From the NCBI GenBank assembly GCA_963674595.2, contig CAXXFV010000010.1, forward strand, positions 1 to 64,000: a DNA stretch of 64,000 nt. The letters are read 5' to 3'. Both the position numbers and the translations under genes were made by a program. The DNA is from a bacterium. GTDB taxonomy: Bacteria; Zhuqueibacterota; Zhuqueibacteria; Residuimicrobiales; Krinioviventaceae. Below the pieces are notes generated by a model that did not search any database, had not been told where the DNA came from, and saw only the letters and a program-made list of their open reading frames with translations. The stretch's first letter is position 1, and every line of letters starts with the position of its first letter. This document shows, in pieces, positions 18,641-58,272 of the stretch.

Positions 18641-18709
18641 TAAAATTAATTATAGTACCTTTCACTCCCACCACTAAAAAATCCTCAAATTTTCAAATAA
18701 GTATTTTTT

Positions 18710-18738
18710 ATTGTAATGGATAATTTTAAAAAAGTCAA
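18710..18738 (-). promoter_or_regulatory. sigma70 promoter TTGACT-N17-TACAAT driving the nuclease/RM cassettes
   Basis: Near-consensus hexamers, 17-nt spacer. Confidence 0.6.
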
Positions 18739-18797
18739 GTGTCGATTAAAAAATTTTTAAAACATTGATTTATTCAATAAATAATACAACGGTTATT

Positions 18798-19631
18798 TTA
18801 TTTATGCTTTTCAAGTTCACTAATTATTTCTGAACAATCAATTTTGCTCTTCTCCATTTTCTTTACAATTTCCCACGCTTCGTCATATTTTTTTTGTTCT
18901 AAATAAACAAGTGCAAGATTATAATTAGCTTCTTTCGAATCTTTATTTCTTAGTAAAGCAATTTTAAACTTTTCTTCAGCTTCATCGAATTTTTTTTGTT
19001 CATATAATTCTACACCTTTATTAAGCAAGTCATTAACACGAACAAGCGGATCAAAACCATATTTATTTAAACCGTTTGTACCTTTTTTAAAAAGTAATAA
19101 AAGTTGCAAATAGAAATTATAAATAGGTATAAAAAGTAACCAAAATTGTCTCCCTGGTCGTTCAATATCATGGAGTCGTTTAATTACAGTAATTGATTGT
19201 AGAAACAACATTATAATAAAACTAGTTATATAAATAGGTAATAATATAATATTATCCAAGTCTCCTATTAACCACATAGATATAAAAATTACAATGAACA
19301 ATGCAATCCCAATAATTGCGTTCAACATATAATATTCTGACCGGCTAATTCGGCCGTTAAACAATGATTTCTTTTTATTATTTAGTATATCATCAAGGCT
19401 ATAGGGAATTTGTACGTTCTCATCTACTTCATTATTTGAGAGTTCAGTAACTGTTTCATTTTTTTCCTTTTTCTGTATATCTTCTTCAAAGAATTTACCA
19501 TTACATTTTTTTGTAAACACTTTTGGATTACTTGGAATGTTTTCATGAATTTCACTGCAAACACCAAGTGTTGAGTTATAGTTGATACATAGAGGACAAA
19601 AATCACTAAAAGATTTCATTTCTTCACTCAT
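18798..19631 (-). CDS. DUF805-family membrane protein with N-terminal Cys motif and C-terminal TPR
   Basis: FNGRISRSEY, IKRLHD, G.NKYG.DP; TPR (ANYNLALVY); RBS GGAGAGG. Confidence 0.8.
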   Translation of the reverse strand: MSEEMKSFSDFCPLCINYNSTLGVCSEIHENIPSNPKVFTKKCNGKFFEEDIQKKEKNETVTELSNNEVDENVQIPYSLDDILNNKKKSLFNGRISRSEYYMLNAIIGIALFIVIFISMWLIGDLDNIILLPIYITSFIIMLFLQSITVIKRLHDIERPGRQFWLLFIPIYNFYLQLLLLFKKGTNGLNKYGFDPLVRVNDLLNKGVELYEQKKFDEAEEKFKIALLRNKDSKEANYNLALVYLEQKKYDEAWEIVKKMEKSKIDCSEIISELEKHK

Positions 19632-19719
19632 TTTACCTCTCCTATTCGATGTTAATTATCGTTGACATAGTTTATCTTCCATATTACCGCGCATTCCTTT
19701 GTCCATATATAGAAAAAAC

Positions 19720-20048
19720 GGCTGCATTTATAACCTTGCTTGTTTTCCTATATCTGGGCATTTTTTAATTCCCTTCCAAATCAGATAAACAAATCCGAAT
19801 TTACGATAAACCAGTGCACCCAACCCAAAAATTTTGACTGTGAAATAACAGGAATGTGATTTTGTGAGCAACTCAATCTCTTCCTCGTGTGTTTTTTTTT
19901 GAATTCCATTTATATGTGTAGAAAATCAGCTAAAGGGCATCAGGAGTTCCCATGCTCGACCAAATCATCCTAAAAAACAGTCCTTTATGACTAATAAAAT
20001 TATTATACAAATTTTGTTGACCCCGTGCAAGTGGTTTCTAAAGAATTT
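19720..20048 (-). promoter_or_regulatory. Promoter (TTGCAC 20030-20025, N17, TATAAT 20007-20002) plus conserved leader, copy 1
   Basis: Collinear similarity to 51773..52147, e.g. ATTCCTGTTATTTC, GTCAAAATT.TTGGGTTGG, TTTTTTAGGA, ACGAGGAA. Confidence 0.7.
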
Positions 20049-20126
20049 CACAATTTTTTCTCGCACGAAATGTGCTGTTTATAGTTATGAAGCTAAAAAT
20101 TATAGATAAAAAAACTCAGTTTCCTC

Positions 20127-20155
20127 TTGCGTTTTTTCCGTTTTTAGCATATAAT
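20127..20155 (+). promoter_or_regulatory. sigma70 promoter TTGCGT-N17-TATAAT for the Roc-COR gene
   Basis: Read directly; divergent from the array promoter. Confidence 0.65.
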
Positions 20156-20172
20156 TAATAAACATATCTATC

Positions 20173-20241
20173 GGAGGGAATTCAATGTTGAAAGCATTTT
20201 AGAAAAGGCGTTTTTACTGCAAGTCAGGTGAATGCCTTTTT
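20173..20241 (+). promoter_or_regulatory. Leader with RBS, mini-ORF MLKAF* (20185-20202) and terminator-like hairpin
   Basis: GGAGG-N7-ATG TTG AAA GCA TTT TAG followed at once by AAAAGGCGTT...AATGCCTTTTT. Confidence 0.5.
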
Positions 20242-20340
20242 GCGTTTTGGGTGGGATAAATTTATAAATAATTGCATTAATAAGGTAATTAGGTCGAAAA
20301 ATAATAGGTAGATTGCCACTTTAGAAAAAGGTAAAATGTA

Positions 20341-22983
20341 ATGAAAGATGAAGAGTTTAAGAAAAAATTAAATGAAGAAACAAGAAAACTTTCTAAAATG
20401 CAAACGACGGATTTCGCATGGCGTTGTGCTGTGCGTGCTTTGCCATTTCTCGCGATTAATGGTAATTTCAACTTTTGGGATGAACAAAATAGAAAAAATC
20501 ATATCTATAGTATATTCTATGCATTAGATATAAGTGTCTCCAGTGTCGCCGCCAACACCGCCTATGACGCTGCTAACGCCGCTAACGCCGCCGCCCACGA
20601 CGTCGTCCATTTTGTCGACTACAATGCCGCCAACGACGCCACCTACGTCGTCGCCTACGCCGTCGCCAACGCCGCCAACGTCGCCGCCAACACCGCCAAC
20701 ACCGCCGACTTCGCCGCCGCCAACGCCGCCTACGCCGCCGCCAATGCCGCCAACCACACCACCAACGCCGCCAACATCGCCGACTTGGTCATCGGCAAAG
20801 CCTCTGACTACGCCCCAAAAAGAATAAAAATAGAATCAATAATTTTACAGGATTTGAAATACTTGCAGGGTGGAAAAGAACAATTCACATCAATAGAATG
20901 GTATGGCGTTATATGGTATAATTTTCAAAAAGCTCTTGAAGCCGAAGGATGTGCATATTGGGGTAAATTATATAAAAATATTTTCGACAATCAATTTATA
21001 ATGGACAAAGAAGCCCTTAAAAGGCGTCTGAGCGTCCCTAAAGAAATACAAGCACAGGGCGCTGCAGCGGTCGCTAGTTATTTAGAAGAAATCGAAAAAA
21101 AAGGTGCCGAACAACTTAACGAGGCCCGTATTATCATACTCGGAGATAAAGGGTCCGGTAAGACCTGCATAGCGCGAAGATTAGTTAATCCTAATGCTCC
21201 AATGACGAAAGAAAATGAAAGTACACCTGGTGTTGAAACTACTTTCTGGAAATTGGAAAAAGATAATATAAATGTACGTATCTGGGATTTTGCCGGGCAT
21301 GTTGTTACTCACGCTGTTCATCAATTTTTTCTTTCAGAACGCTGTTTATATATTATTGTTTACAACGGGCGTACCGACAATCAAAACCAGAATGGAAATG
21401 AATTGCAATATTGGTTAGATCACATGAAAAACTATGGCGGAGATTCTAAAGCAATAATTCTTGTTAATAAACGAGACCAACATCGTGTTGAAATTCCAAT
21501 TAATTTTCTCAAGGAACAATATCCTATCATAAATCATTATACATTTTCTATTAAAAAAGATAAAAAGGAATTAGAAACTTTTCGAACAGATGTTGCTCAA
21601 TATATAAAAAACAATCTTTCCTGGGAAAATCAAATAATACCGAAAAGCTATTTTGAAGTCAAAGAGAGATTAGAAGAACTTTTTAAAGGTATAAACAGAG
21701 AATCAACAGATTTTATTACCAAAGAAAAATTCATAAAGATAGCAGAAAATATTGATAAAAGTAAACAAGATGAATTATTAAAAGACCTGCATTTTCTGGG
21801 CGTTGGATTATGGTATGAAAACATGGAGGATTATAATACTCTGGTACTTAATCCGGAATGGATCAGTCACGGTGTTTATAAAATCATCAATTGGGTACAT
21901 AATGAAAAACAACATTCTCTGGGTTTGGCTGATTTTGAACAGGTCTTTAAGAATGAAGCCAACCGCTATCCCAAAGACAAACATGAATTTCTATACAAGT
22001 TGATGATACACTATGAACTTGCCTATGAAACAGACGGCAAAGACTGTTTAATCATTCCCCATTTGTTAAAAGAAGACCGTCCTGAAAATCTGCCTGATTT
22101 CCCTGTTGGTGAAAGTTTAATGTTACGCTATAAAGCGGACCAACCTTTGCCCCCGAATACCATTTCCCGTTTTATTGTTCGTCATAATCATGAGATCAAA
22201 AAAGAAAAATCCTGCTATTGTGTTTGGCGATATGGAGTTGTACTAGAAGATAGTAAAGGAACAACTGCATTAGTACGGGAAGAAGATCGAACTATTAACG
22301 TTTCCGTAAAAGGTAAGAACAAGACAAACTATATCAGCACATTAAGAGATACTTTGAATGACATTTTTAAAAGTTATAAGAGTAAAATACCTGACCTTCA
22401 ATATCGCATAGTACGTTTTGGGGAAATTCCGAAAGAAATAGAGAAAGAGAATCCTTTATGGTTATCAGAAAAAAACATTTTTTATCATTTTCTCAGAAGA
22501 ACCCCTTTTTATGATGCCGTAACAGGACAATATATTGATCTAAAATCCATAATTGATAAATTAGAAATCAACATTAAAAATTTGACTTTAGGGAGTGGCG
22601 ATATTATAGATAATTCAATACATAATACTTTTAATTTTCAAAATTGCAATATCAACTTACAGAGTAATTTAAATGAATTAGCCCGATTATTTAAAAAAAC
22701 GGGTAATTTGGAAGAAGCGGAAGAACTCGAATATACTGCAGAAGTATTAGATGAGGCTAAACAACTTCAAAAAGATGAAATCAAGAAAAAAGGTGTTTTT
22801 AATAACGTGAGACGCTTTTTAGAAGATTTAGGCGACGATAAATCCAAACTGCATAAAACAGTTAAAGGACTAAAGCGAGGAATTAGTATTGCCCAAGATA
22901 TAGCAAAAACATATAACGATATTGCACAATGGGCTGGGTTACCTCAAGTACCAAAACCATTTTTAAAGAAGGAAGATAAATAA
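20341..22983 (+). CDS. Roc-COR (Roco-family) GTPase lacking LRRs, with Ala/Asn-rich N-terminal helical region
   Basis: GDKGSGKT (G1), STPG (G2), WDFAG (G3), NKRD (G4); COR motifs LH.LG, LNPEW, IPHLL, WRYG. Confidence 0.9.
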   Translation: MKDEEFKKKLNEETRKLSKMQTTDFAWRCAVRALPFLAINGNFNFWDEQNRKNHIYSIFYALDISVSSVAANTAYDAANAANAAAHDVVHFVDYNAANDATYVVAYAVANAANVAANTANTADFAAANAAYAAANAANHTTNAANIADLVIGKASDYAPKRIKIESIILQDLKYLQGGKEQFTSIEWYGVIWYNFQKALEAEGCAYWGKLYKNIFDNQFIMDKEALKRRLSVPKEIQAQGAAAVASYLEEIEKKGAEQLNEARIIILGDKGSGKTCIARRLVNPNAPMTKENESTPGVETTFWKLEKDNINVRIWDFAGHVVTHAVHQFFLSERCLYIIVYNGRTDNQNQNGNELQYWLDHMKNYGGDSKAIILVNKRDQHRVEIPINFLKEQYPIINHYTFSIKKDKKELETFRTDVAQYIKNNLSWENQIIPKSYFEVKERLEELFKGINRESTDFITKEKFIKIAENIDKSKQDELLKDLHFLGVGLWYENMEDYNTLVLNPEWISHGVYKIINWVHNEKQHSLGLADFEQVFKNEANRYPKDKHEFLYKLMIHYELAYETDGKDCLIIPHLLKEDRPENLPDFPVGESLMLRYKADQPLPPNTISRFIVRHNHEIKKEKSCYCVWRYGVVLEDSKGTTALVREEDRTINVSVKGKNKTNYISTLRDTLNDIFKSYKSKIPDLQYRIVRFGEIPKEIEKENPLWLSEKNIFYHFLRRTPFYDAVTGQYIDLKSIIDKLEINIKNLTLGSGDIIDNSIHNTFNFQNCNINLQSNLNELARLFKKTGNLEEAEELEYTAEVLDEAKQLQKDEIKKKGVFNNVRRFLEDLGDDKSKLHKTVKGLKRGISIAQDIAKTYNDIAQWAGLPQVPKPFLKKEDK

Positions 22984-45927: not shown

Positions 45928-46038
45928 GCAGATTTTAAAGAATTTATCAAAGTATATTCGATTCAGACTATTATAAATGTATCACCTTTATAAAAATTCT
46001 TAATATCCTGGTATGTGAATTGTTTATACAACAAAATA

Positions 46039-46494
46039 TTAAGTTATCATTAATGATTTATCATCAATAATTAATTTACCATTTTTACATGCTGGACAAT
46101 TAAATTTTTCAATGTATCCCGGATAATAAATCATTTCATTCTTGCAGGTTGGACATTTGATAGCAGAGAAACTAAAACATTCAGTAGGTAATTTTGTCTT
46201 TTCAGGATTATCTTTTTTATAATCTTTGTAATTTTCTCGATATTCTTTTTTAATATTTTCCAAATTCATTTCCCATGGATTATAATTCGCTTCAATAAAC
46301 TCGACAATTATCAACTTTTTGTATTCAACACAATGCGGACAATAAGCATTTATATACAATCCATCTGCTTTCTGATTACCAACCGGATGTGGTAAAGCTA
46401 TCATATTACCAAATTGGAATTTGAATTCATGGGGACCAGAGACGGAAATTTTAAAATTGCAGTCGACACAGATGAAGCTTATGTAAGTTGCCAT
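46039..46494 (-). CDS. Multi-CxxC zinc-binding hypothetical protein (accessory)
   Basis: Four CxxC pairs; AT-rich. Confidence 0.7.
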   Translation of the reverse strand: MATYISFICVDCNFKISVSGPHEFKFQFGNMIALPHPVGNQKADGLYINAYCPHCVEYKKLIIVEFIEANYNPWEMNLENIKKEYRENYKDYKKDNPEKTKLPTECFSFSAIKCPTCKNEMIYYPGYIEKFNCPACKNGKLIIDDKSLMIT

Positions 46495-46893
46495 ATTTTA
46501 TCCTATCTTTTCAAATGTTTTCATTGACAGTATAAAAAGGTTAATTGAAAGGAGGATAAATAAATACCCAAATATAAATAAAAAAATCTTCTCAATTTAT
46601 AACGAGGTGCATAATGCTTTTCACCAAATAGACACAATGCCATTCCAGTTAACTTGAATGTTTTCTTAAACCAATTCCAACAATTAGGAGTATTGCACCT
46701 AATAAAATTTTTAACACGTTAATTAGTACTTCCATTACTTTATAATTCCAAATCTAAATAATTTTATTTACTATACAAATTCTGCAATATTGATTAAGGT
46801 CAAAAGTAGTGTAAAAATCTAAAGTCTTAAAACACAATAAGGTTTTACGAATATGAATTAACATGCATGAAATGGTATTTTGCTTCATTAACT

Positions 46894-47157
46894 TTAATCA
46901 TTGTTTTCTTCATCTTCATCCAGTACATGCCTTCTAAAAATGCTAACAGAATCTTGAGAATCTATATTGGGATCATTAACTAATTTATCAATTTCTGAAT
47001 CAGAAGCTTTTAAACCTACCTTGAAAGAAATAGTAGACCAAATTAATAATAAAACACATATTGTCTTTGCAACAATATTGTCAAATATTAATAAAATTTA
47101 AGTAGCAATTAAAACTTTAATTATTCCTACAGCTATTGGCACATATCTTGGTTTCAT
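46894..47157 (-). pseudogene. Small two-TM membrane protein gene with in-frame TAA at codon 20
   Basis: MKPRYVPIAVGIIKVLIAT*ILLIFDNIVAKTICVLLLIWSTISFKVGL...; frame continues to TAA at 46894. Confidence 0.5.
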
Positions 47158-47297
47158 TTTATATACAATCCTTTGGTTAAAGATAAATTATCTTGAGAAA
47201 TCAAGTTTTATTGATTCCTATATTATTTTACATAAAGCCATATAATAACAAGCTATTTCATCAAATGATTCGAATAATAATAATTTCATAAAATATA

Positions 47298-47738
47298 TTA
47301 CGTGGAGAATTGTGTTGCAATTTCAGAAGAATAGCTAGCTATCTTAGTCCAGTAAACAATCCAGCAGATTAATCCAATTATAAATATAACAGTACCAATT
47401 GTTGGGATAATACTGCACAAACCTAAAACACACCACGCTATGCCAAGTGATTTTCCTGGATTTGGTTCTTTTATAATGTTTCTACGCTTAAATTCGTTAT
47501 CTAAGGAAGTAGCAATTCTTGAGACAACTATAAACTGCCAGATAAGATTGAAAAACGGAATCAACATTAACCATACCTGGCTTGGATTCATAGCTCGACT
47601 CAATGGATCACATCTCTCGAGGCATTTCTGCAAAGTTAGTAGAAAAAAAATTAATGGTATTAAACTAATTAGTAGAAAAAATATAATAATTAATTCAGGT
47701 CCACTTGGGGACATCATTGCGAAGATAGATGCTATCAT
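47298..47738 (-). CDS. DUF4328-like membrane protein
   Basis: R.MNP.QVWL.LIPFFNLIWQF motif; RBS GGAG. Confidence 0.7.
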   Translation of the reverse strand: MIASIFAMMSPSGPELIIIFFLLISLIPLIFFLLTLQKCLERCDPLSRAMNPSQVWLMLIPFFNLIWQFIVVSRIATSLDNEFKRRNIIKEPNPGKSLGIAWCVLGLCSIIPTIGTVIFIIGLICWIVYWTKIASYSSEIATQFST

Positions 47739-47874
47739 TTATATTCTCCTTTTTTTGAAAATTATAATTGCCAATTAATTTCATTTCCAGCGAATTTCTA
47801 TATTTTTTGATTTAGTAAATCACTTTGCTAAGCGGTCAAAAAAAACATAACGTTTCATTGCTTTTTCCTTATTG

Positions 47875-47997
47875 ATCATACAAAGGTGCAGTAGAACCGC
47901 ACCGTACAACTTGAGAAGTAAGCAAAATTAGATGCTGACATTAAAATTTCTTGATTTCATCGTCCGCCCTGCGGTCAGCTGCATTAAAAGTTAGCAC
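47875..47997 (-). repeat. attC site with degenerate 3' core
   Basis: GTGCTAAC..TGCAGCTGACCGCA...TGCGGTTCTACTGCA..GTATGAT; the inverse core is the exact complement of GTTAGCAC (48945-48938) upstream of the same gene. Confidence 0.7.
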
Positions 47998-48043
47998 AAT
48001 ATACTATAGTTAATGTTTTATTATTATATTAAAAAACTATATA

Positions 48044-48928
48044 TTAAACAGGATCTTGCTTTTCCCAATACTTGCAGGATTGAGGAAACAAAGACCGCTT
48101 AATAATTTGAGTTGAAAATTGTTTTTCCCAAACGGCTTTAGTTTTTTTATGAATTTTGCAAGGGATATATTCAATAAAAAGCATGACTGGGTACATCCAT
48201 AATTCACTTTCATACTTTTCAATTTTACGATAATGTTTGCAAGTCTTACACCACATTAACTTGTCTAAATCCGTTTGATGTGCAAGGCCGGGATTATAGT
48301 CAGCTCCAATAATATTACCAAGCTTTTGCATCGATTTAATATACTCTTTTGCATCATTAAATTTTTGATTTATCTCGATTGAACTGTAAGTCTCTTCAGT
48401 GTTTACTCTACTAACACTATTCTCATTTTTTATTTTCAACAAAAAATAAGCGGCTAATATCAATCCAATTACAATGAATATGCTTAATATTGCTGCTCTA
48501 AAATTATATTTGCTTGCCGAATTATTTATTTGATTTAATTCATTCTTTGCTTCTTTTAATAGTTTTCGATGATTTGCTAAGCTTTGCGAGTACAAATTCA
48601 AAACATCTTTTTCAGCTTGTTTTTCAGCTTCGCAAATTTCAAAAGCTAATTTTCTTGATGAGTCCGGTGAAATTCCTTGCTTCGAAAATTCAAAAGTCAT
48701 TTCCTTTATTTTTCTATTATAATCTTTTGTTGCTATCTTCATATTAAAATCGTCTATAGATTTTTCGAAATAATTAATATTTTTACTCAATGCTTCAACT
48801 CTTTCAGACCAATATTTTTTGGGATTAATTGATTTTTTTATAAAATCATCAGGGACAAATAAATTATACACAATAATTAATATTATTGAACTTATAATTA
48901 TATGTTTTAACGATATTTTTATTTTCAT
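48044..48928 (-). CDS. Two-TM coiled-coil protein with C-terminal Cys cluster, gene cassette
   Basis: TM - coiled coil - TM - WCKTCKHY...PC...CKYW. Confidence 0.7.
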   Translation of the reverse strand: MKIKISLKHIIISSIILIIVYNLFVPDDFIKKSINPKKYWSERVEALSKNINYFEKSIDDFNMKIATKDYNRKIKEMTFEFSKQGISPDSSRKLAFEICEAEKQAEKDVLNLYSQSLANHRKLLKEAKNELNQINNSASKYNFRAAILSIFIVIGLILAAYFLLKIKNENSVSRVNTEETYSSIEINQKFNDAKEYIKSMQKLGNIIGADYNPGLAHQTDLDKLMWCKTCKHYRKIEKYESELWMYPVMLFIEYIPCKIHKKTKAVWEKQFSTQIIKRSLFPQSCKYWEKQDPV

Positions 48929-49094
48929 ATTAATTCCGTGCTAACATAGTTTTAATATATTCAGACAGTCATATTTACAGTGAAAACATTTAGTTTCATG
49001 GTGTAGTTTTACTGCATTTTTTAATTGTATTTTTATTTAGATTTAAGAATGGGGCGGTAGAACTGGCACCCTATTTCTGAGCAAAAAATATTAT

Positions 49095-49700
49095 TCATTT
49101 CAATGAACTTCTTGATGAAATTACCTCAATACGTTTATAATATTCTTCTTCTGTCTTTAATGATAGCAACAGAAATACAAAGAAACCTAAAAAATTAATA
49201 GCAAAAACAATAACAACCTGATAACAACATTTGTTAAATATCAAATAAATCAAATTAATTAAAAACATTAAAAAATTTGCACCGCTTAAATTCCATCGCA
49301 TATGATTTAAAATATTATAGCGTTCAATATACTCGTAATATGCATTCGTATTTTCATTAAATATAGCAACTTCTTTATTTAAAATATCTTCTATTTTATT
49401 ATCAATTGAATATTTCAGTATTTTTTTAATTTTGCTTTCAACTTTTGTTTTTTCAAAAACAACATACATTAATGCGTATGTCAAATGACCAAATGTATAT
49501 GAAAATAGTAAAAGTATAATAAAAAGATATGGAAATTCTTTCCAATAATTAAATATAGATTGTTCATAGTAAAAATAATCGATGAAAAATAACTCAAACA
49601 GGATAAGGGAGCCGCTTAAAATATAAACTTGTATTTCACGAGCTATATGTTTGAATGCCTTTATTAGTTGTTCCGTGATATTTGTCATTGCTTCTTCCAA
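49095..49700 (-). CDS. Four-TM hypothetical protein (accessory)
   Basis: Hydrophobic pattern; SY..GH motif; preceded by GTTGGGT core-like heptamer. Confidence 0.7.
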   Translation of the reverse strand: MEEAMTNITEQLIKAFKHIAREIQVYILSGSLILFELFFIDYFYYEQSIFNYWKEFPYLFIILLLFSYTFGHLTYALMYVVFEKTKVESKIKKILKYSIDNKIEDILNKEVAIFNENTNAYYEYIERYNILNHMRWNLSGANFLMFLINLIYLIFNKCCYQVVIVFAINFLGFFVFLLLSLKTEEEYYKRIEVISSRSSLK

Positions 49701-49791
49701 TTCACTCTAGGTTGATTTATATTTTTGAACCCAACATTGTCACCAGGGTTTTGTTAAATGGTGGTTTATAAACACATATCAAGCCTACTAT

Positions 49792-50070
49792 TTACCTACT
49801 TTTATCTTTTAAAATTACGACCAATCCAATTGTAATAAGGCATATTGAAATAAGTTGAGCATAAAAAGTTGGAGTATGCAAAAAAACAATATTTGTAACT
49901 CCACTTGCTGTGCTTTTAACTTTGAAGATAGCAAATGGTTTGTACCCCATAGGTACATTTTTATCACCATAATCTACATAACATGGTGGCACCAAAAATG
50001 AGAGTATAATCAGTAGTATGCCCATGAGAATTACTATCTTCTGTTTGGAATTCAAATTCATATGTTTCAC
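49792..50070 (-). CDS. Small two-TM hypothetical protein
   Basis: LNSKQK...PP...GY pattern. Confidence 0.65.
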   Translation of the reverse strand: MKHMNLNSKQKIVILMGILLIILSFLVPPCYVDYGDKNVPMGYKPFAIFKVKSTASGVTNIVFLHTPTFYAQLISICLITIGLVVILKDKSR

Positions 50071-50190
50071 CTTTTTAAATACCTGCTTACATAGTTCATT
50101 ATATTTATATATCCGTATTTACTGTGGCGAGATATTGTCATTTGTTCCAAAAGTAAATCGCTTCCACCTCAATTATATCTTATTGAAGTG

Positions 50191-50314
50191 GTCTAACATT
50201 TGGCATAATCGGTCGCTAACAAACCGATATTTTATTTGTATTTTGTTTTTTACCAACTTTTAAACTGCTCAAAATGGACCGCTGAAGCGGTCCGCGTTCA
50301 GCCCGTTGTTAGCC
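50191..50314 (-). repeat. attC site (124 bp)
   Basis: GGCTAAC AACGG GCTGAAC GCGGACCGCT...AGCGACCGA TTATGC CAAAT GTTAGAC; begins 4 nt after the stop of 50319..51281. Confidence 0.8.
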
Positions 50315-50318
50315 ACTA

Positions 50319-51281
50319 TTACTCACCAATTATCGTTTCGAAAGGTAATGTAGCTCTTATAGTTGCCTTTAACTCATTTAATGCTAAATAAATATTATCG
50401 AGATCCCAAATAATAGTTGTATGGTGATTTGTATCAAAATGTGGTTTTGTTTTAATATCATCAAAAGCTTTCTTTTCACATAAATATATTACTGGTTTTC
50501 CAAGACCCTCAGCATATCCTGCTTCCCAATATGCACCATTATTATTATGGGAAAGGTCTGCAAGTAAAATTCTTGATTTCCTGATTTCTACTCTTAACTG
50601 ATTATCAATTAATCCTGCTTGTAACACATCTTTTAGTATTCGTAATTCAAAGCCTGTTTCTTCAACTGCTGGGACGAAATATTCTCTAAATATTTTTATC
50701 ATCTTCTCATCATATTGCATTGCCATAAAGGATATTTTACTATCAGACCCTTTTATTAATATTTCATGATACTTTTCCCAACCATTAAAAGTCAGACCAA
50801 ACTTGCATATAGGACCATCCTCACGTGCATCACCACATTTTTTGAAATATATTAACCCTCTATTTGAGAGTTCTGAAGAAATATAATCTACATCTGAAGG
50901 AAACTTAGCACCAATTATTGAGGTAACATGTCTACCAATCCTTTCAATGTTTTCAGCATAATGTGTTAATGTCGAACCTAAAAATAAAATCAGATTTTCT
51001 GATTGCTCATGTAATGTAGGTAAATTAATCTCATATGGTATTTTACTGAAAATATTAACAGTAACTTTTACAGGTTTATTTTCTGATTGATTATTCCTTA
51101 TCCAATAACTTAATACCCACCTCCAGTCTTCGTGTGGATCATCAGGATCTATCATTGCTTTAATTTTTTTTTCTAATTGAAATTTCCCGCATCTTGGGCA
51201 ATCGATGGACAAAACATTATTTACAATATCATCGTAAATTTTATTAAGAAGTGTTGATTTACATATAAGGCATTTCTGCAT
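50319..51281 (-). CDS. Zn-finger/winged-helix protein with C-terminal nucleoside 2-deoxyribosyltransferase/TIR-like domain; candidate defence effector
   Basis: CxxC..CPRCG; FMAM, ADLSHNNNGAYWEAGYAEGLGKPVI, HFD. Confidence 0.8.
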   Translation of the reverse strand: MQKCLICKSTLLNKIYDDIVNNVLSIDCPRCGKFQLEKKIKAMIDPDDPHEDWRWVLSYWIRNNQSENKPVKVTVNIFSKIPYEINLPTLHEQSENLILFLGSTLTHYAENIERIGRHVTSIIGAKFPSDVDYISSELSNRGLIYFKKCGDAREDGPICKFGLTFNGWEKYHEILIKGSDSKISFMAMQYDEKMIKIFREYFVPAVEETGFELRILKDVLQAGLIDNQLRVEIRKSRILLADLSHNNNGAYWEAGYAEGLGKPVIYLCEKKAFDDIKTKPHFDTNHHTTIIWDLDNIYLALNELKATIRATLPFETIIGE

Positions 51282-51476
51282 TCAACTTCTCCTATTATAA
51301 CAATGTTAATTAATTATATGAACCAATTGCCCCTATAATGCTAATTACCAGACATACAGAATTGGTATTGAATTATCATAACAGCTAAGCCAGAATTTGA
51401 TCGCTTATGAGCTATGCCATATTTTGCGGTACAACGGCAAGCAAAAATAGCATTAAGAAATAAAACACTTAAATAT

Positions 51477-51701
51477 TTATGAACAAGCTCGAATAATCAA
51501 TATTACAATAAGTATTGTAAATGCAAATTTTGCGAAACTCCAAATTCCCATTAACAAATTTAGACCTGCTGCCATTATTGCACCAACTAATCCATCTTCT
51601 TGATATGATTCTAAAACCATCATAATTGCAATAAATATACGCCATAATACTACAATACCAATGTAAACAAGAGCTAACCAAAATAATATTTGACCGATCA
51701 T
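51477..51701 (-). CDS. Small membrane protein
   Basis: Hydrophobic 74 aa with RBS AAGGA. Confidence 0.6.
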   Translation of the reverse strand: MIGQILFWLALVYIGIVVLWRIFIAIMMVLESYQEDGLVGAIMAAGLNLLMGIWSFAKFAFTILIVILIIRACS

Positions 51702-51772
51702 TTTAGATTCCTTTTTAAATCAGTAAATAAGGATAGTTATTGAAATAAATATTAGTGCAATAACACATAGTC

Positions 51773-52147
51773 AAGCTACCTTTATCAAGCAGCAAGTATT
51801 TTCTAATATTGGAAGATTTTGTTTATATGTGCTTTCCACAGATTTATAAAGAAACAATTTCAAATACATACATTTTGCTAGGAAAATATCTTGATTAATA
51901 TTGAACATAAACTGAACCAACCCAATAATTTTGACCGGGAAATAACAGGAATATGACTATCTAACCGACGCAATTCTTTCCTCGTAACTGTTTTTACTTC
52001 CCATATATTAATTTTATGTGGTAATTCAGTTAAAGGCTTTCAGGACTCCCATTTCCGACCATATTGTCCTAAAAAATCTTCCTTTTACCTGACAAAATAA
52101 TGATACAAATTTATAATTTTTCCCGCAAGTTGTTTTTAAAGAATTTA
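51773..52147 (-). promoter_or_regulatory. Promoter (TTGCGG 52128-52123, N17, TATCAT 52105-52100) plus conserved leader, copy 2
   Basis: Homologous to 19720..20048. Confidence 0.7.
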
Positions 52148-52444: not shown

Positions 52445-54124
52445 TTATCTGGCCTTTCCAGCTCTGCTCCACACCATCGATCCCCCGATAGTTCCACCAA
52501 TTTCTTCACTGATTAAAGAATATGCTGCTGCATGAAGTAAGTGGTCTCCACTGATGGGCTTGCTCCAAACCTGACGATTTGTGTTTGGGTCAAAATACCT
52601 AACTGGTAATGTAAAATGGTCCAATAACTCACCGTCAGATACTTTTCTCCAGTTTCTCGGAAAGATAAATCCATCCTGTTCACTTTTTAAAATATTCTTT
52701 AAAACACGATCAAGCGCTTGTGTCCGGTCAAGAGCGATAATTTTATTATCAATGTCAACTGTCTGATCTTGCAAGCTCCCCCCTTTTTTATACCAACACA
52801 GCCATACTTTACCAGGTCGGGATGCTTGCAGTTCTTTGGCTTTTGTGGTATCATATTCACCATCGATTGTACATACTTCGACATTATATTGATCAATTAA
52901 AAAATCCAGTGTGTCCCAATCATAAGCTGCGCCACAAGCAACCAGTCGTTTTCTTCCATTATATCGTTCCCAAATGAAATAGTGATGCCGTCCACCCGGA
53001 TCAACTCCCATAAAAGTATTGTTTCCTGTCGATGGCATGAGATAATCATCTTTACATTTTTCCATCAAAGCTTCAGTTATTTTACTTCCCTTTGGAGCAA
53101 AAGCACGGCCCAGGTTTGAGTTGTGAAACAATTGTGTCTTTGTGGTATCTCCCAGTGCTTCCTGAAATTCATTCCACAATTCCAAAAGATCAGTATCAAA
53201 ACTGATCAACCTTGAAAATCGGTAACCGACTCTTGGTTTATCCGGATATTTAGCAACCCATTCACCGACCCAGGGTTCATATATAATCTTTTCACATTTA
53301 TCACAGATGATTTGAGGCTTTCCCTTTTCTTCTTTAATGACTTTATAAATCAAACCTTCAGAATCAACCTGACGAACAACATGTTTAAACCAATCCAGTT
53401 CAATGTATTTATTACAATGCTGACACCGGGTCAGGTATCGGGATTGATTTGTAGACCGGTATAAACCATCCACACCACAATTTTCAACAGTGGGTCGTGA
53501 TGAATAGCGGAGCATTTTATATTCAGATGCTTTCAACCTGTCTTTTAACTGGTCCAGGTTGTCCATGTCTGATTCATCATATTCATCAACAAAAGCGATA
53601 TCTACAGGATTTTCTACAAACTCTGTCCTTGAATTCGATCCCACAAACCGCATGGTCCCTTTACCATAATGTTTCTGTAAAACACTGTCACTTTCACCGC
53701 CTTCATCCAAATGACTTTTGTACAGGGGAACATAACTAAGAAGTTTGTCAATCCGGTCATGTACAAAGTTTGATCTCAGGGTTTGGTTCGGCATGACATA
53801 CAGACCACGTAATCCACTGGAAACATAGTGGAGCAATTCAACTAAAAGACGCTCCGTAATTCCGACCTGTACCGGCTTGATAAACACCATAAACTGAGGC
53901 ATTTCTGTTTTGGGTTTTATTCCTTTGGCGATGTCATTGAAAAAGCCTGGCGGAGCATATAAATCCTGCAGCCAGTCCCGATTGATAAAAGACATGCGCT
54001 TGAAATGCCGGTTTAAATGATGTTCTCTGGCCAACCCGAACACCGGAGCCAGGGTATTAATACTCTCTCTGAATTTTACTAACTGAGTTAATGTCAATGA
54101 TGTTAAATACTCAGGAGTGACCAT
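52445..54124 (-). CDS. terL: Terminase large subunit (lambda gpA family)
   Basis: KPVQVGITE Walker A variant, FVDEYD Walker B, SRPT, C..C Zn site, MGVDPG nuclease, DHLLHA. Confidence 0.92.
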   Translation of the reverse strand: MVTPEYLTSLTLTQLVKFRESINTLAPVFGLAREHHLNRHFKRMSFINRDWLQDLYAPPGFFNDIAKGIKPKTEMPQFMVFIKPVQVGITERLLVELLHYVSSGLRGLYVMPNQTLRSNFVHDRIDKLLSYVPLYKSHLDEGGESDSVLQKHYGKGTMRFVGSNSRTEFVENPVDIAFVDEYDESDMDNLDQLKDRLKASEYKMLRYSSRPTVENCGVDGLYRSTNQSRYLTRCQHCNKYIELDWFKHVVRQVDSEGLIYKVIKEEKGKPQIICDKCEKIIYEPWVGEWVAKYPDKPRVGYRFSRLISFDTDLLELWNEFQEALGDTTKTQLFHNSNLGRAFAPKGSKITEALMEKCKDDYLMPSTGNNTFMGVDPGGRHHYFIWERYNGRKRLVACGAAYDWDTLDFLIDQYNVEVCTIDGEYDTTKAKELQASRPGKVWLCWYKKGGSLQDQTVDIDNKIIALDRTQALDRVLKNILKSEQDGFIFPRNWRKVSDGELLDHFTLPVRYFDPNTNRQVWSKPISGDHLLHAAAYSLISEEIGGTIGGSMVWSRAGKAR

Positions 54125-54515
54125 TTTCACCCCTGTTTTTAAAAATAGCCAGCTCCTCAGTAAGAATATCAAGAGCCTTGTCTTTGGTCATCTCTTTCGT
54201 TTCTACAGGACCACCATCAGCACCGGTAATTTCCTGTCTCCGGGAATATCCCCGGTCCTTACCCTTTGTCGACAGGATAAACTTAATGGCCCACGGCTGA
54301 GCATTCAGAGCAGCATCTTCAAGTTTCAATTCAACTTTGTCAAGGGTTCGTTCTTTTTCTTCCTCGAAGACAGCTTTTACTGTTGCATACTTTTGTATAT
54401 AGTTATATATAGTTTTACGTTCACAACCTAAGGCCATAGCTGCATAAGTAGCGTTGCCCCGCGTTTTCCTTAAAGCTTCAATAACCTGTTTTGTCGTAAA
54501 AATATTTTCTGCCAT
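54111..54515 (-). CDS. terS: Terminase small subunit-like (Fis-type HTH)
   Basis: GNATYAAMALGCERKTIY, AI.F.L..KGK.RGY, EITGADGGPV; upstream of terL. Confidence 0.8.
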   Translation of the reverse strand: MAENIFTTKQVIEALRKTRGNATYAAMALGCERKTIYNYIQKYATVKAVFEEEKERTLDKVELKLEDAALNAQPWAIKFILSTKGKDRGYSRRQEITGADGGPVETKEMTKDKALDILTEELAIFKNRGENGHS

Positions 54516-54567
54516 AAAAAAAAGCCTACCAGTGTGTAAAATGTGTAAAATGTTTAAAGCACAACTT

Positions 54568-55254
54568 TTAATAACTATTCTTTGAGGTTACATATTGAAA
54601 GCCATCTCCCCCGCTTCCGATCATTGTCAAATCCGGTCTAAACAGCGGAGGCCTCTCGATCGACGGTTCCCAGGTTGACAACTCTTGCTCCTGCGGAATC
54701 ATTACAATCTTTCCGTTTTGAATATCAGATAAAACTTTTCTAAATAACCTGACACCCATAGGTTGTAATTCACGCCGCCATAGTGAAGAAGCCGTATCAT
54801 CTGACCTTATAAAACAAAAGTCATGTGCCGCAATTGGTCCGGCATCGACATTATCTGTTAACCAATACACTGTGCCACCCGTTACTTTTTCATTCATCCT
54901 GATGGACCAATATATAGCATCACGACCTCTATGAAGCGGCAGCAATGAAGGGTGGAAACCGATCGCTCCAAATTTTGTTTTCAACCTGGTCTTTTTACTT
55001 ATGAAATCATGAGAATGGGCAGCAATAATCAAATCCACATTTTCCGGTAATGATTCAGCATTTAACTTTCCAGCTTCAACAAGAATGACTTTATCCCTGA
55101 GTGCAGTATGATAGAGCCTGTCATATTTTCCCGTGTAATTCGACGGGGCACTGACACCGACAATATTATATCCCTGTTCTTTGACCATGTCATAGACCAG
55201 TTTTCCAAAATACTTTTGACCTGTAATAAATATATTAATATCCTGTGGATTCAA
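54568..55254 (-). CDS. Formyltransferase (N10-formyl-THF dependent, Fmt/PurN fold, N-terminal domain only)
   Basis: FHPSLLPLHRG, GGTV.W...VDAGPI. Confidence 0.9.
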   Translation of the reverse strand: MNPQDINIFITGQKYFGKLVYDMVKEQGYNIVGVSAPSNYTGKYDRLYHTALRDKVILVEAGKLNAESLPENVDLIIAAHSHDFISKKTRLKTKFGAIGFHPSLLPLHRGRDAIYWSIRMNEKVTGGTVYWLTDNVDAGPIAAHDFCFIRSDDTASSLWRRELQPMGVRLFRKVLSDIQNGKIVMIPQEQELSTWEPSIERPPLFRPDLTMIGSGGDGFQYVTSKNSY

Positions 55255-56399
55255 TTTTCACCTCGGGTTGATGTTTTTGTTTGATTGCCAATGTATTTAA
55301 AACTTTGAACCGCACGAAAATGCCCACCATATCCGGCACCACGTATGTTCCCTTTCCCGGTTCGTAAAATACTTTTGATTGAAGAAAGTTTGTTATCACC
55401 ATATAAGGATGCTTTTTTATGAATCCATAACGGAGATCTTCTTAAATAACCACACAGTTGCGGGTGACTGGTATGAAAAAAAGTTGAATACTTTTTGAAA
55501 CATCTGCCAAAGCCTTCCAGGTGATATTGTGCAATCCAATTTAAAAAGGTTGTTCCGACACCAGCCCCTTGCCATTCCGGCATAACGACCAACCGGGTTG
55601 CCCGATAAGCATGAGCAGTAAAAAGCGGACTGACCATGACATGTGAAACAAGCTCACCATCGACAGTGCCCACAAAAGCTTCTGCAGCCGGGGGAATCGG
55701 TAAATCTAAATAATAATGCGGTTTAAAATATTTCCAGTAACTATAGTCTGTCTTCCTGATTTCGAGTTCAAATTTGGGACGTCGCCGAAGACGCCCCCGT
55801 TCAAAATTTTTACTTTTCGTATCAAATACCCAATCAGGCTCGAGCCAATCCAAAACATCATAATGCGGTGTTAATAAGACACATTTGCCATTCGGATTTG
55901 AGCGACGCCAGGACTTTTGAAAAGCTTGAGCACCTATTTTAGCGATTTGTCTGTCAACCACACTGGTGAACTCATCAATAACGACTTGTTCAGGTTTTTC
56001 ACAAATAATTCGGGCCAAACCAGCCCGGAATTTTTCACCATTACTCAAAACATGAAAAGGTCTTAACCATGAAGGCACATCTCCAAGTCCAACTGCCGCC
56101 AAAGCACCCGTGACATTATCAAATGAACCATCAGGGATGATACAATCGATAATCGGTTTATCTGCCGGCCAACCTTCTTCATAATTATGTATCAAATTTT
56201 CTTTAAAAATCAATTTACCGATGGAGGTTTTGCCGCTTCCGGACGGACCGACTACAACTCCTATATTCCAACTGTCTTCAATATCAATATCAGCAATCAA
56301 ATCAAAGTTACAACCACTCTCAGCATTAAATAGACTCTTAACACGAGCAGCCCTGTAACTGGTAAAATCAGAACATTTATTATGTACTTTTATTTTCAT
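55251..56399 (-). CDS. ABC-type ATPase fused to GNAT acyltransferase
   Basis: GPSGSGKT, LSNGEKFR, IDEFTS; RLVVMPEWQGAGVG acyl-CoA-binding motif. Confidence 0.9.
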   Translation of the reverse strand: MKIKVHNKCSDFTSYRAARVKSLFNAESGCNFDLIADIDIEDSWNIGVVVGPSGSGKTSIGKLIFKENLIHNYEEGWPADKPIIDCIIPDGSFDNVTGALAAVGLGDVPSWLRPFHVLSNGEKFRAGLARIICEKPEQVVIDEFTSVVDRQIAKIGAQAFQKSWRRSNPNGKCVLLTPHYDVLDWLEPDWVFDTKSKNFERGRLRRRPKFELEIRKTDYSYWKYFKPHYYLDLPIPPAAEAFVGTVDGELVSHVMVSPLFTAHAYRATRLVVMPEWQGAGVGTTFLNWIAQYHLEGFGRCFKKYSTFFHTSHPQLCGYLRRSPLWIHKKASLYGDNKLSSIKSILRTGKGNIRGAGYGGHFRAVQSFKYIGNQTKTSTRGEN

Positions 56400-56959
56400 A
56401 CAGTCACCACCTTACAGGTATATCCTTGTTCCATTAATTCATCATAGACTTGCTTTTGTTGCTCTTCACTGTCACACATCACAATGACGCCAAACTGCTG
56501 TTTGTAGTGAATGCCTTCCTCACTGTTTGAATCCGGGGCATCATCTGAAATTTCTTCCTGATTATTAGACAGTTCTTTTAAAAGTTTATTGATATCTTCA
56601 TCCTCAGACTGAACTTTATCCAACAAATCAGTTAAAAGTTTTTCATCTGTTTCCGCTAAAGCAGATATCGGGTCAAAAACTGAAAGAGCAAGCATTTCCT
56701 CCTCTTGAGTAAGGTCTACATATTTTACTGGAACCTGTGTCTCTTTGTTTTTCATAGCAAGTGTGACTCGCAAATGACCATCTATTAAATGTCCTGTTTG
56801 TTTATTTATAATAACGTCCTGAATCCAACCTATCTCTTTTAATAAACCCTGTAAAACATCCTGTTGAAACTTGGGATGAATACGATAATTAAAAGGATTT
56901 GATAAAATGTTAATCGGGTTTTCCTCTCCGCTTCCGATTATTCTGTTCTGCCACTTCAT
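56396..56959 (-). CDS. ParB/Srx N-terminal domain protein with small C-terminal domain
   Basis: NP.N.R.H, IDGHLR; ATGA overlap with the next gene. Confidence 0.85.
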   Translation of the reverse strand: MKWQNRIIGSGEENPINILSNPFNYRIHPKFQQDVLQGLLKEIGWIQDVIINKQTGHLIDGHLRVTLAMKNKETQVPVKYVDLTQEEEMLALSVFDPISALAETDEKLLTDLLDKVQSEDEDINKLLKELSNNQEEISDDAPDSNSEEGIHYKQQFGVIVMCDSEEQQKQVYDELMEQGYTCKVVTV

Positions 56960-57072
56960 AGCACCTCCAGGCTTTCAGAGATTTAGTAATATTGTTAGTT
57001 ATCGTCTATCTCTGCGCCCTCCCGATCCATTGGTTTATTTTCTCCGTCAGTAATGCATGTCCGTTTTCCTCA

Positions 57073-57642
57073 TTAAAGATTAATGGTTAATTGCTCAGAA
57101 TACGATTTTATCAAATCATACCAGGGCTGTTTTTGAGACAACAAAGGCCATTTATGAATTGTGGCCGCCAACTGATGCAACGCTTCAAATGTCAAATTCC
57201 CGACAAAACGATTGGCAAATTGAAAAACATACCGTCCGATCAAGGCACTGTTGATCTCCGGGATATTTCTCAAATTCAACCGGAGAGTTTGTAAAACGAC
57301 CTGACGTTTCATATAGTCCTGATGCCTGACCCGGTTCCATTGTGACGGGCTGATAAGGATATGAGAATCAAATATCTCTTTACAGATCGTCAGTTGTGTT
57401 TGAACGGCATGGGCATTCACCGCCCATGTCATTCTCCCGTTTGTTTGCCGGTCATGGTCCTCAATGACAGCAAAAGCAATATTGTGATGTTGTTTTGTTT
57501 TCTGTAACCTTTCACTAAAATCAAGATGTCTAAAATATTTTATCGTCCCGGTATTTATATGTTTGCCATACTGGTCCCAGACGGTTAACCCGGTAAAACT
57601 ACCAGGGGAAATACTCACAAAAGTCACATTCTTCATAATCAC
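57073..57642 (-). CDS. RuvC-like RNase H-fold protein, probably inactive
   Basis: SISPG..TG, VIED, P.QW, EINSA (Asp replaced by Ser and Asn). Confidence 0.6.
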   Translation of the reverse strand: MIMKNVTFVSISPGSFTGLTVWDQYGKHINTGTIKYFRHLDFSERLQKTKQHHNIAFAVIEDHDRQTNGRMTWAVNAHAVQTQLTICKEIFDSHILISPSQWNRVRHQDYMKRQVVLQTLRLNLRNIPEINSALIGRYVFQFANRFVGNLTFEALHQLAATIHKWPLLSQKQPWYDLIKSYSEQLTINL

Positions 57643-57645
57643 ACC

Positions 57646-58272
57646 TTAATTGTTTTGGTTGGCAAGCCATGGTTTTAATTGATTGACGGTCGGATATTGC
57701 AGTTGTTTGGAAGCCATCCACTTCATAGCTGTAAACCCGCCACCATTTGTGTCGAAATCTATAATTCCAAAAATCAGTTTACCCATCAGCGCCGAATCGG
57801 TTTGATGAGGATTTGGCAGTTGTTCACCAAACATACTCCTGGCCCATTGTCGTTTAAAAGTATCATTTTTCCCTTGCCGGTTCCATTGGATGTGAAGGAT
57901 TAAGATGTGGTCCGAAAACACTTCTTTACATATCTGGATTTGGACAGAGACTTTATAAGCGTTTTTTCTTTTCATACCGATAAATGGCTTATAGTCTTCA
58001 AGAAGAATAAATTCAATTTTATATTCTTTTTTAATCTGTTCCAGTAAAAGCTTGTATTGCTGAGTATCCTTAAAAGGTAAATTTTTTGAACAAACCTTTG
58101 ATCCGATACCGTCAAAAATACTGATACCGCCGGGATTGCCCGGATCAATAGCTCCCCAAAATCTGTTTAAATTCGACATCGCCTTTTGTTTTTGAGGCTC
58201 CAACAAAGCTGCTATAGAACTATTCTGCAATCGAATCATGTCATACTCCTGTTTTCTTTCCCAAATCATCAC
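57646..58272 (-). CDS. RuvC-like Holliday junction resolvase
   Basis: AIDPG..GG, LLED, QW, HQTDSA. Confidence 0.7.
   Translation of the reverse strand: MMIWERKQEYDMIRLQNSSIAALLEPQKQKAMSNLNRFWGAIDPGNPGGISIFDGIGSKVCSKNLPFKDTQQYKLLLEQIKKEYKIEFILLEDYKPFIGMKRKNAYKVSVQIQICKEVFSDHILILHIQWNRQGKNDTFKRQWARSMFGEQLPNPHQTDSALMGKLIFGIIDFDTNGGGFTAMKWMASKQLQYPTVNQLKPWLANQNN

Follow-up and report, generated by a model that had tools for sequence, protein, structure and literature searches.

The 64,000-nucleotide stretch of bacterial DNA analyzed here (the window; positions 1 to 64,000 of contig CAXXFV010000010.1 in assembly GCA_963674595.2) contains a three-gene prophage cassette that encodes a ParB-like protein, a fusion of an ABC-type ATPase with a GNAT acyltransferase (AG) and a formyltransferase-fold protein (FT). 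The sequences of the three proteins identify the trio, almost certainly, as an ordinary member of the AG cassette family phrog_11143. What does such a cassette do for its phage? We tentatively propose that the phage expresses it late, as a module that attaches an acyl group to a base of its own DNA in a Mom-like manner, although the module is unrelated to Mom, and that FT makes formyl-coenzyme A (formyl-CoA). As a whole, this proposal has somewhat less than an even chance of being correct, and its parts differ in strength. The target of the cassette is probably DNA. Given a DNA target, the evidence tips modestly toward FT as the supplier of formyl-CoA.

The sequence-only reading that preceded this analysis had described three coupled genes directly upstream of the small terminase gene terS, and this description holds. 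The open reading frames (ORFs) are as it gave them, the ParB-like and AG genes overlap by four nucleotides (ATGA, 56396-56399), the AG and FT genes do the same (TTGA, 55251-55254), and the trio is conserved as an operon. A gap of 52 nt separates the FT stop codon from the start of terS, which is followed by terL. The fusion of the ATPase to a GNAT domain is also borne out. ABC_tran (6.5e-7) and Acetyltransf_1 (2.9e-5) match a single AG polypeptide, residues 1-376 of which align with positions 1-355 of the 357-position profile phrog_11143 (4.3e-144), and the AF2 model of AG consists of two domains (pLDDT 90, pTM 0.84). By VIA, the ATPase domain matches ABC nucleotide-binding domains (Z ~14) and the GNAT domain matches small GNATs (Z up to 15.4 for 1y9k; 14.5 for RimI). 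Foldseek returns only generic ABC and GNAT relatives for the whole AG model and only generic GNATs for a model of the GNAT domain alone (pLDDT 86.6). TmcA/NAT10 is not among the 50 matches listed in either fold search of AG.

AG retains its ATPase and CoA-binding motifs. In all 73 aligned AG sequences, S53, G54, G56, K57, S119, G121, D142, E143, H179, Q277, G278 and G280 are invariant, as are R269, V271 and P274 of the GNAT part. The glycine-rich P-loop, LSNGE, DEF and H179 of the ATPase part, which we take to be its ATPase motifs, are invariant or nearly so in the same sequences, and Q277/G278/G280 presumably constitutes the CoA-pyrophosphate motif. AG is an ATPase of the ABC type and not of the helicase type. 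The sequence-only reading had stated that this ATPase lacks a membrane partner; indeed, no permease-family match was obtained with Pfam and PHROG profiles, which report family matches only, in the ORFs adjoining AG (ParB, FT and terS). An ABC transporter ATPase was considered as an identity for AG and rejected, given these neighbors and NCBIfam transporter models that all score far below their cutoffs. AG homologues also occur in other forms. Two of them contain Hint/LAGLIDADG inteins (P0231 and P0253), and one carries an N-terminal Tudor-like domain (P0268). In Firmicutes phages, the ATPase and GNAT are found as separate adjacent genes, such as Orf24 and Orf25 of Lactococcus phage P335 (L085), and Streptococcus phage phiNIH1.1 (L004) has the same split, with the GNAT part left unannotated in the record. 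In P335, no accessory enzyme was recognized.

The surroundings of AG were compared in four sets of loci: a close viral set (the best 80 of 470 related viral loci), a close genome set (80 loci) and two distant viral sets, of which the first has 160 loci (129 unique) and the second a further 160 loci (126 unique) from two still more distant clades. Seeds P0175 (one locus) and P0262 (none) contributed no usable loci. FT lies directly after AG in 70/70 related viral loci with room downstream. The other 10 close viral loci lack FT, and all of them end within one base of the AG stop codon. These ten contigs come from IMG/VR (L036, L037, L042, L048, L049, L060, L074, L079, L080 and L081), and our guess is that provirus trimming removed the FT gene as "host-like". 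A second cassette is present in the same genome (contig C3:118591-122736, L332) in the order ParB-AG-FT-terS-terL with 92-97% identity, and the genome thus carries two related prophages with the cassette. Because of the 70 viral loci and this second prophage, the ParB-AG-FT arrangement is far beyond chance. The gene-neighborhood survey that the sequence-only reading had suggested as a check thus upholds the association of AG with FT; the terminase genes are less constant companions (terL in 76/129 and terS in 44/129 loci of the first distant set).

The ParB-like protein of the window matches phrog_498, the ParB part of phage DNA methyltransferases (5.9e-18), phrog_620 (ParB-like, 3.3e-16) and PADLOC MTase_II (2.9e-8). 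Among the long proteins encoded upstream of AG in related loci, 11 of 13 distinct forms match ParB_N at E<=5e-5, and four pass the gathering score. The window protein consists of the N-domain and a tail, without the central helix-turn-helix (HTH) and C-terminal dimerization domains of partition ParB. A chromosomal or plasmid partition ParB is ruled out by this 187-aa make-up and by the lack of an adjoining ParA gene, for which ORFs, Pfam and PHROG were consulted. The tail (residues 148-187) matches phrog_28816 (3.7e-11), and a phmmer search with the tail finds a homologue that ends at the AG start in 79/80 viral loci, as the end of a 176-262 aa protein in 30 loci and as a stand-alone ORF of 40-89 aa in 49. 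A tail homologue is also directly upstream of AG in 64/80 genome loci by phmmer. In addition, one ParB_N::AG fusion protein was found (P0189). Our reading of these sequences is that the 40-residue tail is a docking adaptor on AG and that the ParB domain is an optional targeting head.

The sequence-only reading had called the cassette packaging-coupled, and the comparison of loci does not support this. In ParB-type loci, the cassette does precede the terminase, as observed in Gordonia (genes 1-3), Pasteurella, Leptospira, Lactococcus P335 and Streptococcus phages, and ParB is found in 99 of the 129 unique distant loci. However, Burkholderia phage phiE255 (Bcepmuvirus) and Pseudomonas phage Komp_PAO1_1 have a tail-fiber assembly gene followed by a small adaptor, AG and FT, and the adaptor, AG and FT of a Porphyromonas phage likewise come after tail genes. 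In the 126 unique more-distant loci, AG is found among replication and recombination genes, which encode a DnaA-C-like HTH protein (21 loci), a PD-(D/E)XK nuclease (20), a 5'-3' exonuclease (12), ERF (10), NinG (6) and primase (5); ParB is present in just 15. Adjacency to terS therefore looks like late-operon placement and not a mechanistic link. The constant context is DNA metabolism, and every context found is one of DNA metabolism or packaging. These observations bear on the idea that the cassette is a packaging or partition accessory without covalent modification, in which ParB and the ABC ATPase organize DNA for the terminase and the GNAT and FT proteins are vestigial or regulatory. The cassette adjoins terS and terL here and in most ParB-type loci, as such an accessory would. 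We nevertheless regard this idea as very improbable: some copies of the cassette are nowhere near a terminase gene, and neither the CoA motif of the GNAT domain nor the catalytic triad of FT varies within the family, which argues that both proteins are under selection as enzymes.

A more specific link to DNA modification comes from phiE255. An unannotated ORF (L002:3563-3868) that overlaps the adaptor gene gp28 encodes a Com homologue (Zn_ribbon_Com 5.7e-16; BLASTP to Mu Com 1e-4), and com overlaps mom in phage Mu at the position that matches the phiE255 Com/adaptor pair. This placement of the module, behind a Com homologue and in the slot of mom in Mu, favors a DNA modification that is Mom-like and self-protective. 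Like Mom, AG would be a late phage enzyme of acyl-CoA transferase fold, and the phiE255 cassette follows tail-fiber genes with an overlapping Com homologue. The parallel with Mom drawn by the sequence-only reading thus survives as an analogy only, as kinship in sequence is not detectable (hhalign probability 0.2%, E 0.26). Moreover, Mom lacks the ABC ATPase, the adaptor or ParB protein and the frequent FT that accompany or form part of AG, and the window copy is placed before terS without com: no ORF of at least 50 aa, and hence no com, is present in the 113-nt gap upstream of the window ParB gene.

DNA is favored as the target because ParB_N proteins are encoded upstream of AG, because one of them is fused to AG and because the nearest relatives of the ParB domain are fused to DNA methyltransferases. 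The Com homologue in the mom slot of phiE255 and the terminase or replication/recombination neighbors also favor DNA, and the inteins of two AG homologues are counted as evidence as well. This evidence on the target is contextual throughout. The earlier proposal of DNA base modification is supported in part, by the DNA-metabolism and packaging contexts and by the Com/mom slot; its suggestions of coupling to packaging and of protection against a neighboring type IIG restriction enzyme are unsupported. That enzyme (13708-17700; Eco57I 2.3e-34, TaqI_C and MmeI_Mtase) is ~37 kb from the cassette, beyond the tail genes, in a separate low-GC island (8506-22983) outside the structural genes, with no evidence that links it to the cassette.

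Two other targets have to be weighed against DNA. AG could acylate RNA, for example a tRNA or rRNA cytidine in the manner of TmcA/NAT10, to protect or retune translation in infection, with ParB in another role. To our knowledge, TmcA/NAT10 are the only characterized ATPase-coupled GNAT nucleobase acyltransferases, and they make N4-acetylcytidine (ac4C) in RNA. ASCH genes accompany AG in several settings: beside AG in Streptococcus phage phiNIH1.1, in 11/129 distant loci, in 10/126 further loci on the same strand as AG and in 3/80 close genome loci. ASCH proteins are described as N4-acylcytosine and tRNA ac4C amidohydrolases (PMC6972931 and PMC9599836), and the erasure of tRNA ac4C by ASCH is reported in a preprint (bioRxiv 10.64898/2026.02.27.708502). 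We consider an RNA target improbable nonetheless. The AG ATPase is of the ABC type and not of the helicase type, the first distant set has 10 of its 11 ASCH genes on the opposite strand, and the ParB domains, the Com/mom slot and the terminase or replication neighbors point to DNA. Acylation of a protein or small molecule, such as a host defense signal, a polyamine or a capsid or terminase protein, as a means of host takeover or anti-defense is about equally improbable. The nearest GNAT structures are indeed protein, polyamine and antibiotic acetyltransferases (HP0935, SpeG, RimI and Naa50), and the adaptor genes of Porphyromonas phages carry the annotation "acr candidate". However, structural matches of this kind are generic for the fold, and their Z scores all lie within ~2 of one another, PADLOC gives only generic matches for the cassette and no defense system, and acylation of a protein or small molecule leaves the ParB link and Com control unexplained.

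FT is a stand-alone protein of 228 aa in which Formyl_trans_N (residues 8-162, 1.7e-18) is the only Pfam match, without a fused carrier or dehydrogenase domain. It matches phrog_9240 (2.4e-51), and the PHROG label "cyanobacterial phosphoribosylglycinamide formyltransferase" is a mere family name. The sequence-only reading had noted that FT lacks the C-terminal domain of Fmt, and we find the same. FT was rejected as Fmt, given the absence of this tRNA-binding domain and a TIGR00460 score of 61.1 bits against a cutoff of 201.5, and as PurN (TIGR00639, 40.2 bits against a cutoff of 150.1); it falls below every NCBIfam cutoff, including those of Fmt, PurN, ArnA and PurU. The best PDB relative of FT is the N-domain of 10-formyl-tetrahydrofolate (10-formyl-THF) dehydrogenase (FDH; 4qpd), with 91 bits and 5.5e-25 over residues 8-197 on 3-202 in a single-sequence search in which a sugar formyltransferase (50 bits) and Fmt (47 bits) are the runners-up. 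With a 37-sequence FT profile, the FDH N-domain reaches 121 bits (3.7e-34) versus 78 bits (4.9e-21) for Fmt; a match of FT to HypX is weak (9.7e-5). The FDH triad His106/Ser108/Asp142 aligns with H101, S103 and D137 of FT, which are invariant in 37/37 homologues and in 8/8 AG-linked FTs, among them the proteins of phiE255, Komp, a Porphyromonas phage and a Gordonia phage. The Gordonia phage FT gene is annotated "tRNA-methyltransferase", yet its product matches Formyl_trans_N. Gordonia phages Axumite and Ligma, like Pseudomonas phage Komp_PAO1_1, are carriers of the FT type. Short FT forms of ~160 aa (L001:5131-5604, L052:5130-5612 and similar) occur beside the small-adaptor type and have an internal deletion at approximately residues 35-70 of the window FT, with the His/Ser/Asp triad kept.

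The FDH domain takes a formyl group from 10-formyl-THF and hands it to a 4'-phosphopantetheine arm, whose thiol is the acceptor, with roles assigned to the triad residues, and the homologous HypX domain is proposed to formylate CoA to formyl-CoA, as set out in sections of Muraki et al. (2019, PMC6802093). ALDH1L1 performs the same formyl transfer to a pantetheine thiol, according to a passage of Tsybovsky et al. (2022, PMC8748788). Across the whole domain, no solved structure matches FT better than the N-domain of FDH/ALDH1L1, which shares its His/Ser/Asp triad, whereas FT lacks the carrier, aldehyde dehydrogenase and enoyl-CoA-hydratase-like domains of FDH and HypX. The acceptor is the pantetheine thiol of the carrier arm in FDH and, as proposed, CoA in HypX, and by analogy it may be a thiol in FT as well. 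Because FT is closest to the FDH N-domain and keeps the triad, and because the FDH and HypX acceptors are pantetheine thiols, a donor-supplying role of FT is favored.

FT could also act on DNA directly, as the sequence-only reading had it, so that the cassette leaves both acyl and N-formyl marks or formylates an amino-acyl group that the GNAT domain has installed. Most characterized enzymes of the formyltransferase fold do formylate amines, with Fmt, PurN, ArnA and sugar formyltransferases among the PDB matches of FT, and the tight coupling of FT to AG (the 4-nt overlap and the unbroken viral association) is in keeping with direct action. We find this direct action unlikely, as every amine formyltransferase scores at least 40 bits below the thiol-acceptor FDH domain in the searches with FT. 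In alignments, FT also has a Gly two residues ahead of the catalytic His, at the position where amine formyltransferases carry a catalytic Asn. Furthermore, FT-type cassettes encode no source of amino-acyl-CoA, and an alternative accessory module found in a sister clade points to donor synthesis.

This alternative module is exemplified by Rhodococcus phage Jace (L088, NC_047974, gp85-gp88), which encodes ParB, AG, an aspartate decarboxylase (PanD; Asp_decarbox 2e-33) and a CoA-transferase-like protein, a 227-aa product that corresponds to the N-terminal part of CoA-transferase family III (CoA_transf_3, 2.2e-8). The Jace-type variant is also present at L171-L174, L197 and L203. Profile searches of the fetched loci separate the two modules completely. 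FT is encoded in 70 of the 80 close viral loci and 65 of the 80 close genome loci, with no PanD or CoA-transferase-like gene in either set. The first 160 distant loci have no FT but contain PanD in 15 and a CoA-transferase-like gene in 16, with both in 15, and none of the three genes is found in the further 160 distant loci. FT and the PanD/CoA-transferase module never occur together in the fetched loci. Gly-Ser, which we take to be the PanD self-cleavage site, is retained in the PanD homologues, as is a Gly-Asp motif, presumably of functional meaning too, in the CoA-transferase-like proteins. In a FastTree phylogeny of 263 AGs, the accessory state requires 14 changes, whereas 500 label shuffles require 77 on average and never fewer than 67, and a single clade holds the FT-linked AGs (110 members with FT, 12 without it and 12 not judgeable). 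Descriptively, there are two unrelated accessory modules that exclude each other, and each goes with an AG clade of its own. The two would handle carboxyl or one-carbon units that can end on a CoA thiol. Donor supply is favored by the replacement of FT with PanD/CoA-transferase in the sister clade and by an accessory state that follows the AG tree. Because the modules are mutually exclusive, would be directed to CoA and lie beside a GNAT that needs acyl-CoA, we suggest that a role as donor suppliers would be their simplest account. The absence of FT at many AG loci indicates, in addition, that the core works without it.

How might the cassette operate if FT supplies formyl-CoA and the target is DNA? 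The ParB-like N-domain would bring the machine to DNA, and the 40-residue tail would dock on AG. ATP-driven closure of the ABC ATPase would engage DNA and present a base, and the GNAT domain would then acylate an exocyclic amine of this base, with acyl-CoA as the donor. FT would not act on DNA; it would transfer the formyl group of 10-formyl-THF to the thiol of free CoA and thereby provide formyl-CoA as a dedicated donor, and the product in a cassette of the window type would be an N-formyl base. Sister cassettes with PanD and a CoA-transferase-like protein instead of FT would use beta-alanyl-CoA, and AGs without an accessory gene would draw on a common host acyl-CoA. In its most general form, the proposal is that phage-made unusual acyl-CoA donors feed a ParB-tethered AG that writes acyl marks, N-formyl on a base here and N-beta-alanyl on a base in the sister clade. 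We offer this generalization as a conjecture that is rather more likely to be wrong than right.

Several observations weigh against DNA acylation with formyl-CoA from FT. The likeness of FT to FDH is one of sequence and may reflect ancestry and not the acceptor, and FT has no recognizable CoA-binding domain. A search for longer FT forms found no FT::AG fusion, the sole longer relative being a formate-THF ligase fusion, which is weak evidence. FT is missing in 15 of the 80 close genome loci, and the majority of distant AGs lack any accessory gene. The loci behind the tree and the exclusivity counts were chosen for their similarity to a small number of seeds, and relatives carry the same labels; independence is thereby overstated, and both results are descriptive only. 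As for the target, the ParB-like protein of the window has no Pfam match at E<=0.01, the nearest structural neighbors of the GNAT domain are generic and mute on substrate, and the ASCH companions, which hint at cytosine N4 as the site, fit an RNA target equally well. Full-text literature searches, moreover, retrieved no report of a modified nucleoside in a carrier phage and no experimental study of the cassette.

The AG family is large and widespread. A search of 5.8 billion proteins gave at least 7701 clusters of AG homologues at 90% identity with E<=1e-5 among the 8000 candidates scored, and 50%-identity representatives comprise 511 AG homologue clusters at E<=1e-30; the ESM Atlas lists only the family's own clusters. 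Searches by tblastn with AG match 61 phage records at E<=1e-5; a threshold of 1e-3 raises the number to 75, the weakest being generic ABC matches. The hosts of AG phages include Porphyromonas, Burkholderia, Pseudomonas, Gordonia, Streptococcus, Lactococcus, Oenococcus, Leptospira, Aeromonas and Tenacibaculum, and AG copies at 51-72% identity are found in genome contigs of Bacillota, Bacteroidota, Pseudomonadota, Planctomycetota, Spirochaetota and others. No true AG homologue was found in 40 related genomes, where the top matches reach at most 22 bits and are generic ABC proteins.

The reading of such systems as DNA-modifying is reasonable and is already in print as a prediction. A section of Iyer et al. 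(2021, Viruses 13:63, PMC7824862), citing Iyer, Zhang, Burroughs and Aravind (NAR 2013), describes a phage GNAT coupled to an ABC ATPase, predicts that it gives a DNA base an acyl modification of uncharacterized nature and names Tenacibaculum phage pT24 as a carrier. Phage pT24 (H64) is among our tblastn matches to AG. The window cassette belongs to the same family, with the same fused architecture and predicted role, and is one more member that differs in no way in kind. The sequence-only reading had known of no characterized product; none appears in the literature searched, but the ABC-GNAT system itself had already been predicted in the section cited above. For the donor-supply reading and the PanD/CoA-transferase sister module, we found no earlier account in the literature searched, which excludes Iyer et al. 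(2013). The part of PMC10853773 that touches on GNATs has one only within DndF and is irrelevant here.

Two further systems invite comparison. TmcA/NAT10 follow the logic proposed for AG, with acylation of a nucleobase amine by a GNAT to which an NTPase is fused, but their ATPase is of the helicase type and they carry a tRNA-binding domain that AG lacks. Phage ParB-domain DNA methyltransferases (phrog_498; PADLOC MTase_II) provide the best match for the window ParB domain and occupy the same slot near the terminase. Unlike in these enzymes, the ParB domain of the cassette is on a separate protein with a putative docking tail, and its partner enzyme is an acyltransferase.

The AG family is among the most conserved phage proteins that lack an assigned function, with thousands of sequence clusters, and the window itself adds no new kind of system to it. 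If AG acylates DNA, the family would amount to anti-restriction chemistry that is widespread among phages but has yet to be read, and to a likely cause of odd behavior of phage DNA in sequencing and cloning. If the accessory modules supply the donors, the cassettes would form a programmable family of acyl-DNA hypermodifications and include the first use of formyl-CoA in nucleic-acid chemistry. Donor supply predicts exact mass shifts of a base, +27.995 Da in FT-type phages and +71.037 Da in PanD-type phages.

Table 1. The cassette, its domains and the adjoining terminase genes in the window.
Feature	Position	Strand	Details and basis
ParB-like protein gene	56396-56959	-	187 aa; ORF list
Putative DNA-/NTP-binding targeting part of the ParB-like protein: ParB/Srx-like N-terminal domain (~residues 17-147)	56519..56911	-	phrog_620, phrog_498
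Conserved adaptor: C-terminal ~40-residue tail of the ParB-like protein	56399..56518	-	phrog_28816
ABC-ATPase::GNAT fusion (AG) gene	55251-56399	-	382 aa
ABC-type ATPase domain of AG (residues 1-205)	55785..56399	-	ABC_tran, VIA
GNAT acyl-CoA acyltransferase domain of AG (residues 210-372)	55284..55772	-	Acetyltransf_1, VIA
Formyltransferase-fold protein (FT), proposed formyl-CoA maker	54568-55254	-	228 aa, TTG start; Formyl_trans_N
Small terminase subunit terS	54111-54515	-	HTH_8 2e-4, phrog_309 5e-4 (weak); directly before terL
Large terminase subunit terL	52445-54172	-	GpA_ATPase 3.5e-23, phrog_675 2.6e-73

The window is prophage from ~23 kb to past 64 kb, with RecT/YqaJ recombination, terminase, capsid, tape-measure and tail genes. 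A scan of positions 54000-57700 for promoters and terminators was uninformative, with 14 promoter-like matches versus 9.8 +/- 3.2 in shuffled sequence and 5 terminator-like matches versus 3.1 +/- 2.0. The low-GC island that houses the type IIG enzyme is defense-like and also encodes a PLD/SNF2 helicase (8506-11592), a split AbiEii (11895-12245 and 12331-12756) and a Roc-COR GTPase (20341-22983). Another low-GC island (27-31%) occupies positions 46000-52000, directly downstream of terL and ahead of the next structural genes. It contains a 320-aa protein (50319-51281, minus strand) that has a Cys-rich N-terminal part and a C-terminal domain with weak matches to nucleoside 2-deoxyribosyltransferase/TIR-like families (Pfam 2.2e-5; PADLOC TIR effector 2.3e-4), and this protein or its island may be a prophage-borne defense moron. 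Just upstream of the ParB gene, two ORFs on the minus strand (57073-57642 and 57646-58272) encode proteins of 189 and 208 aa, respectively, without Pfam matches. One of them weakly matches a PHROG Holliday-junction resolvase (3.8e-4), and the two may be divergent RuvC-like paralogues.

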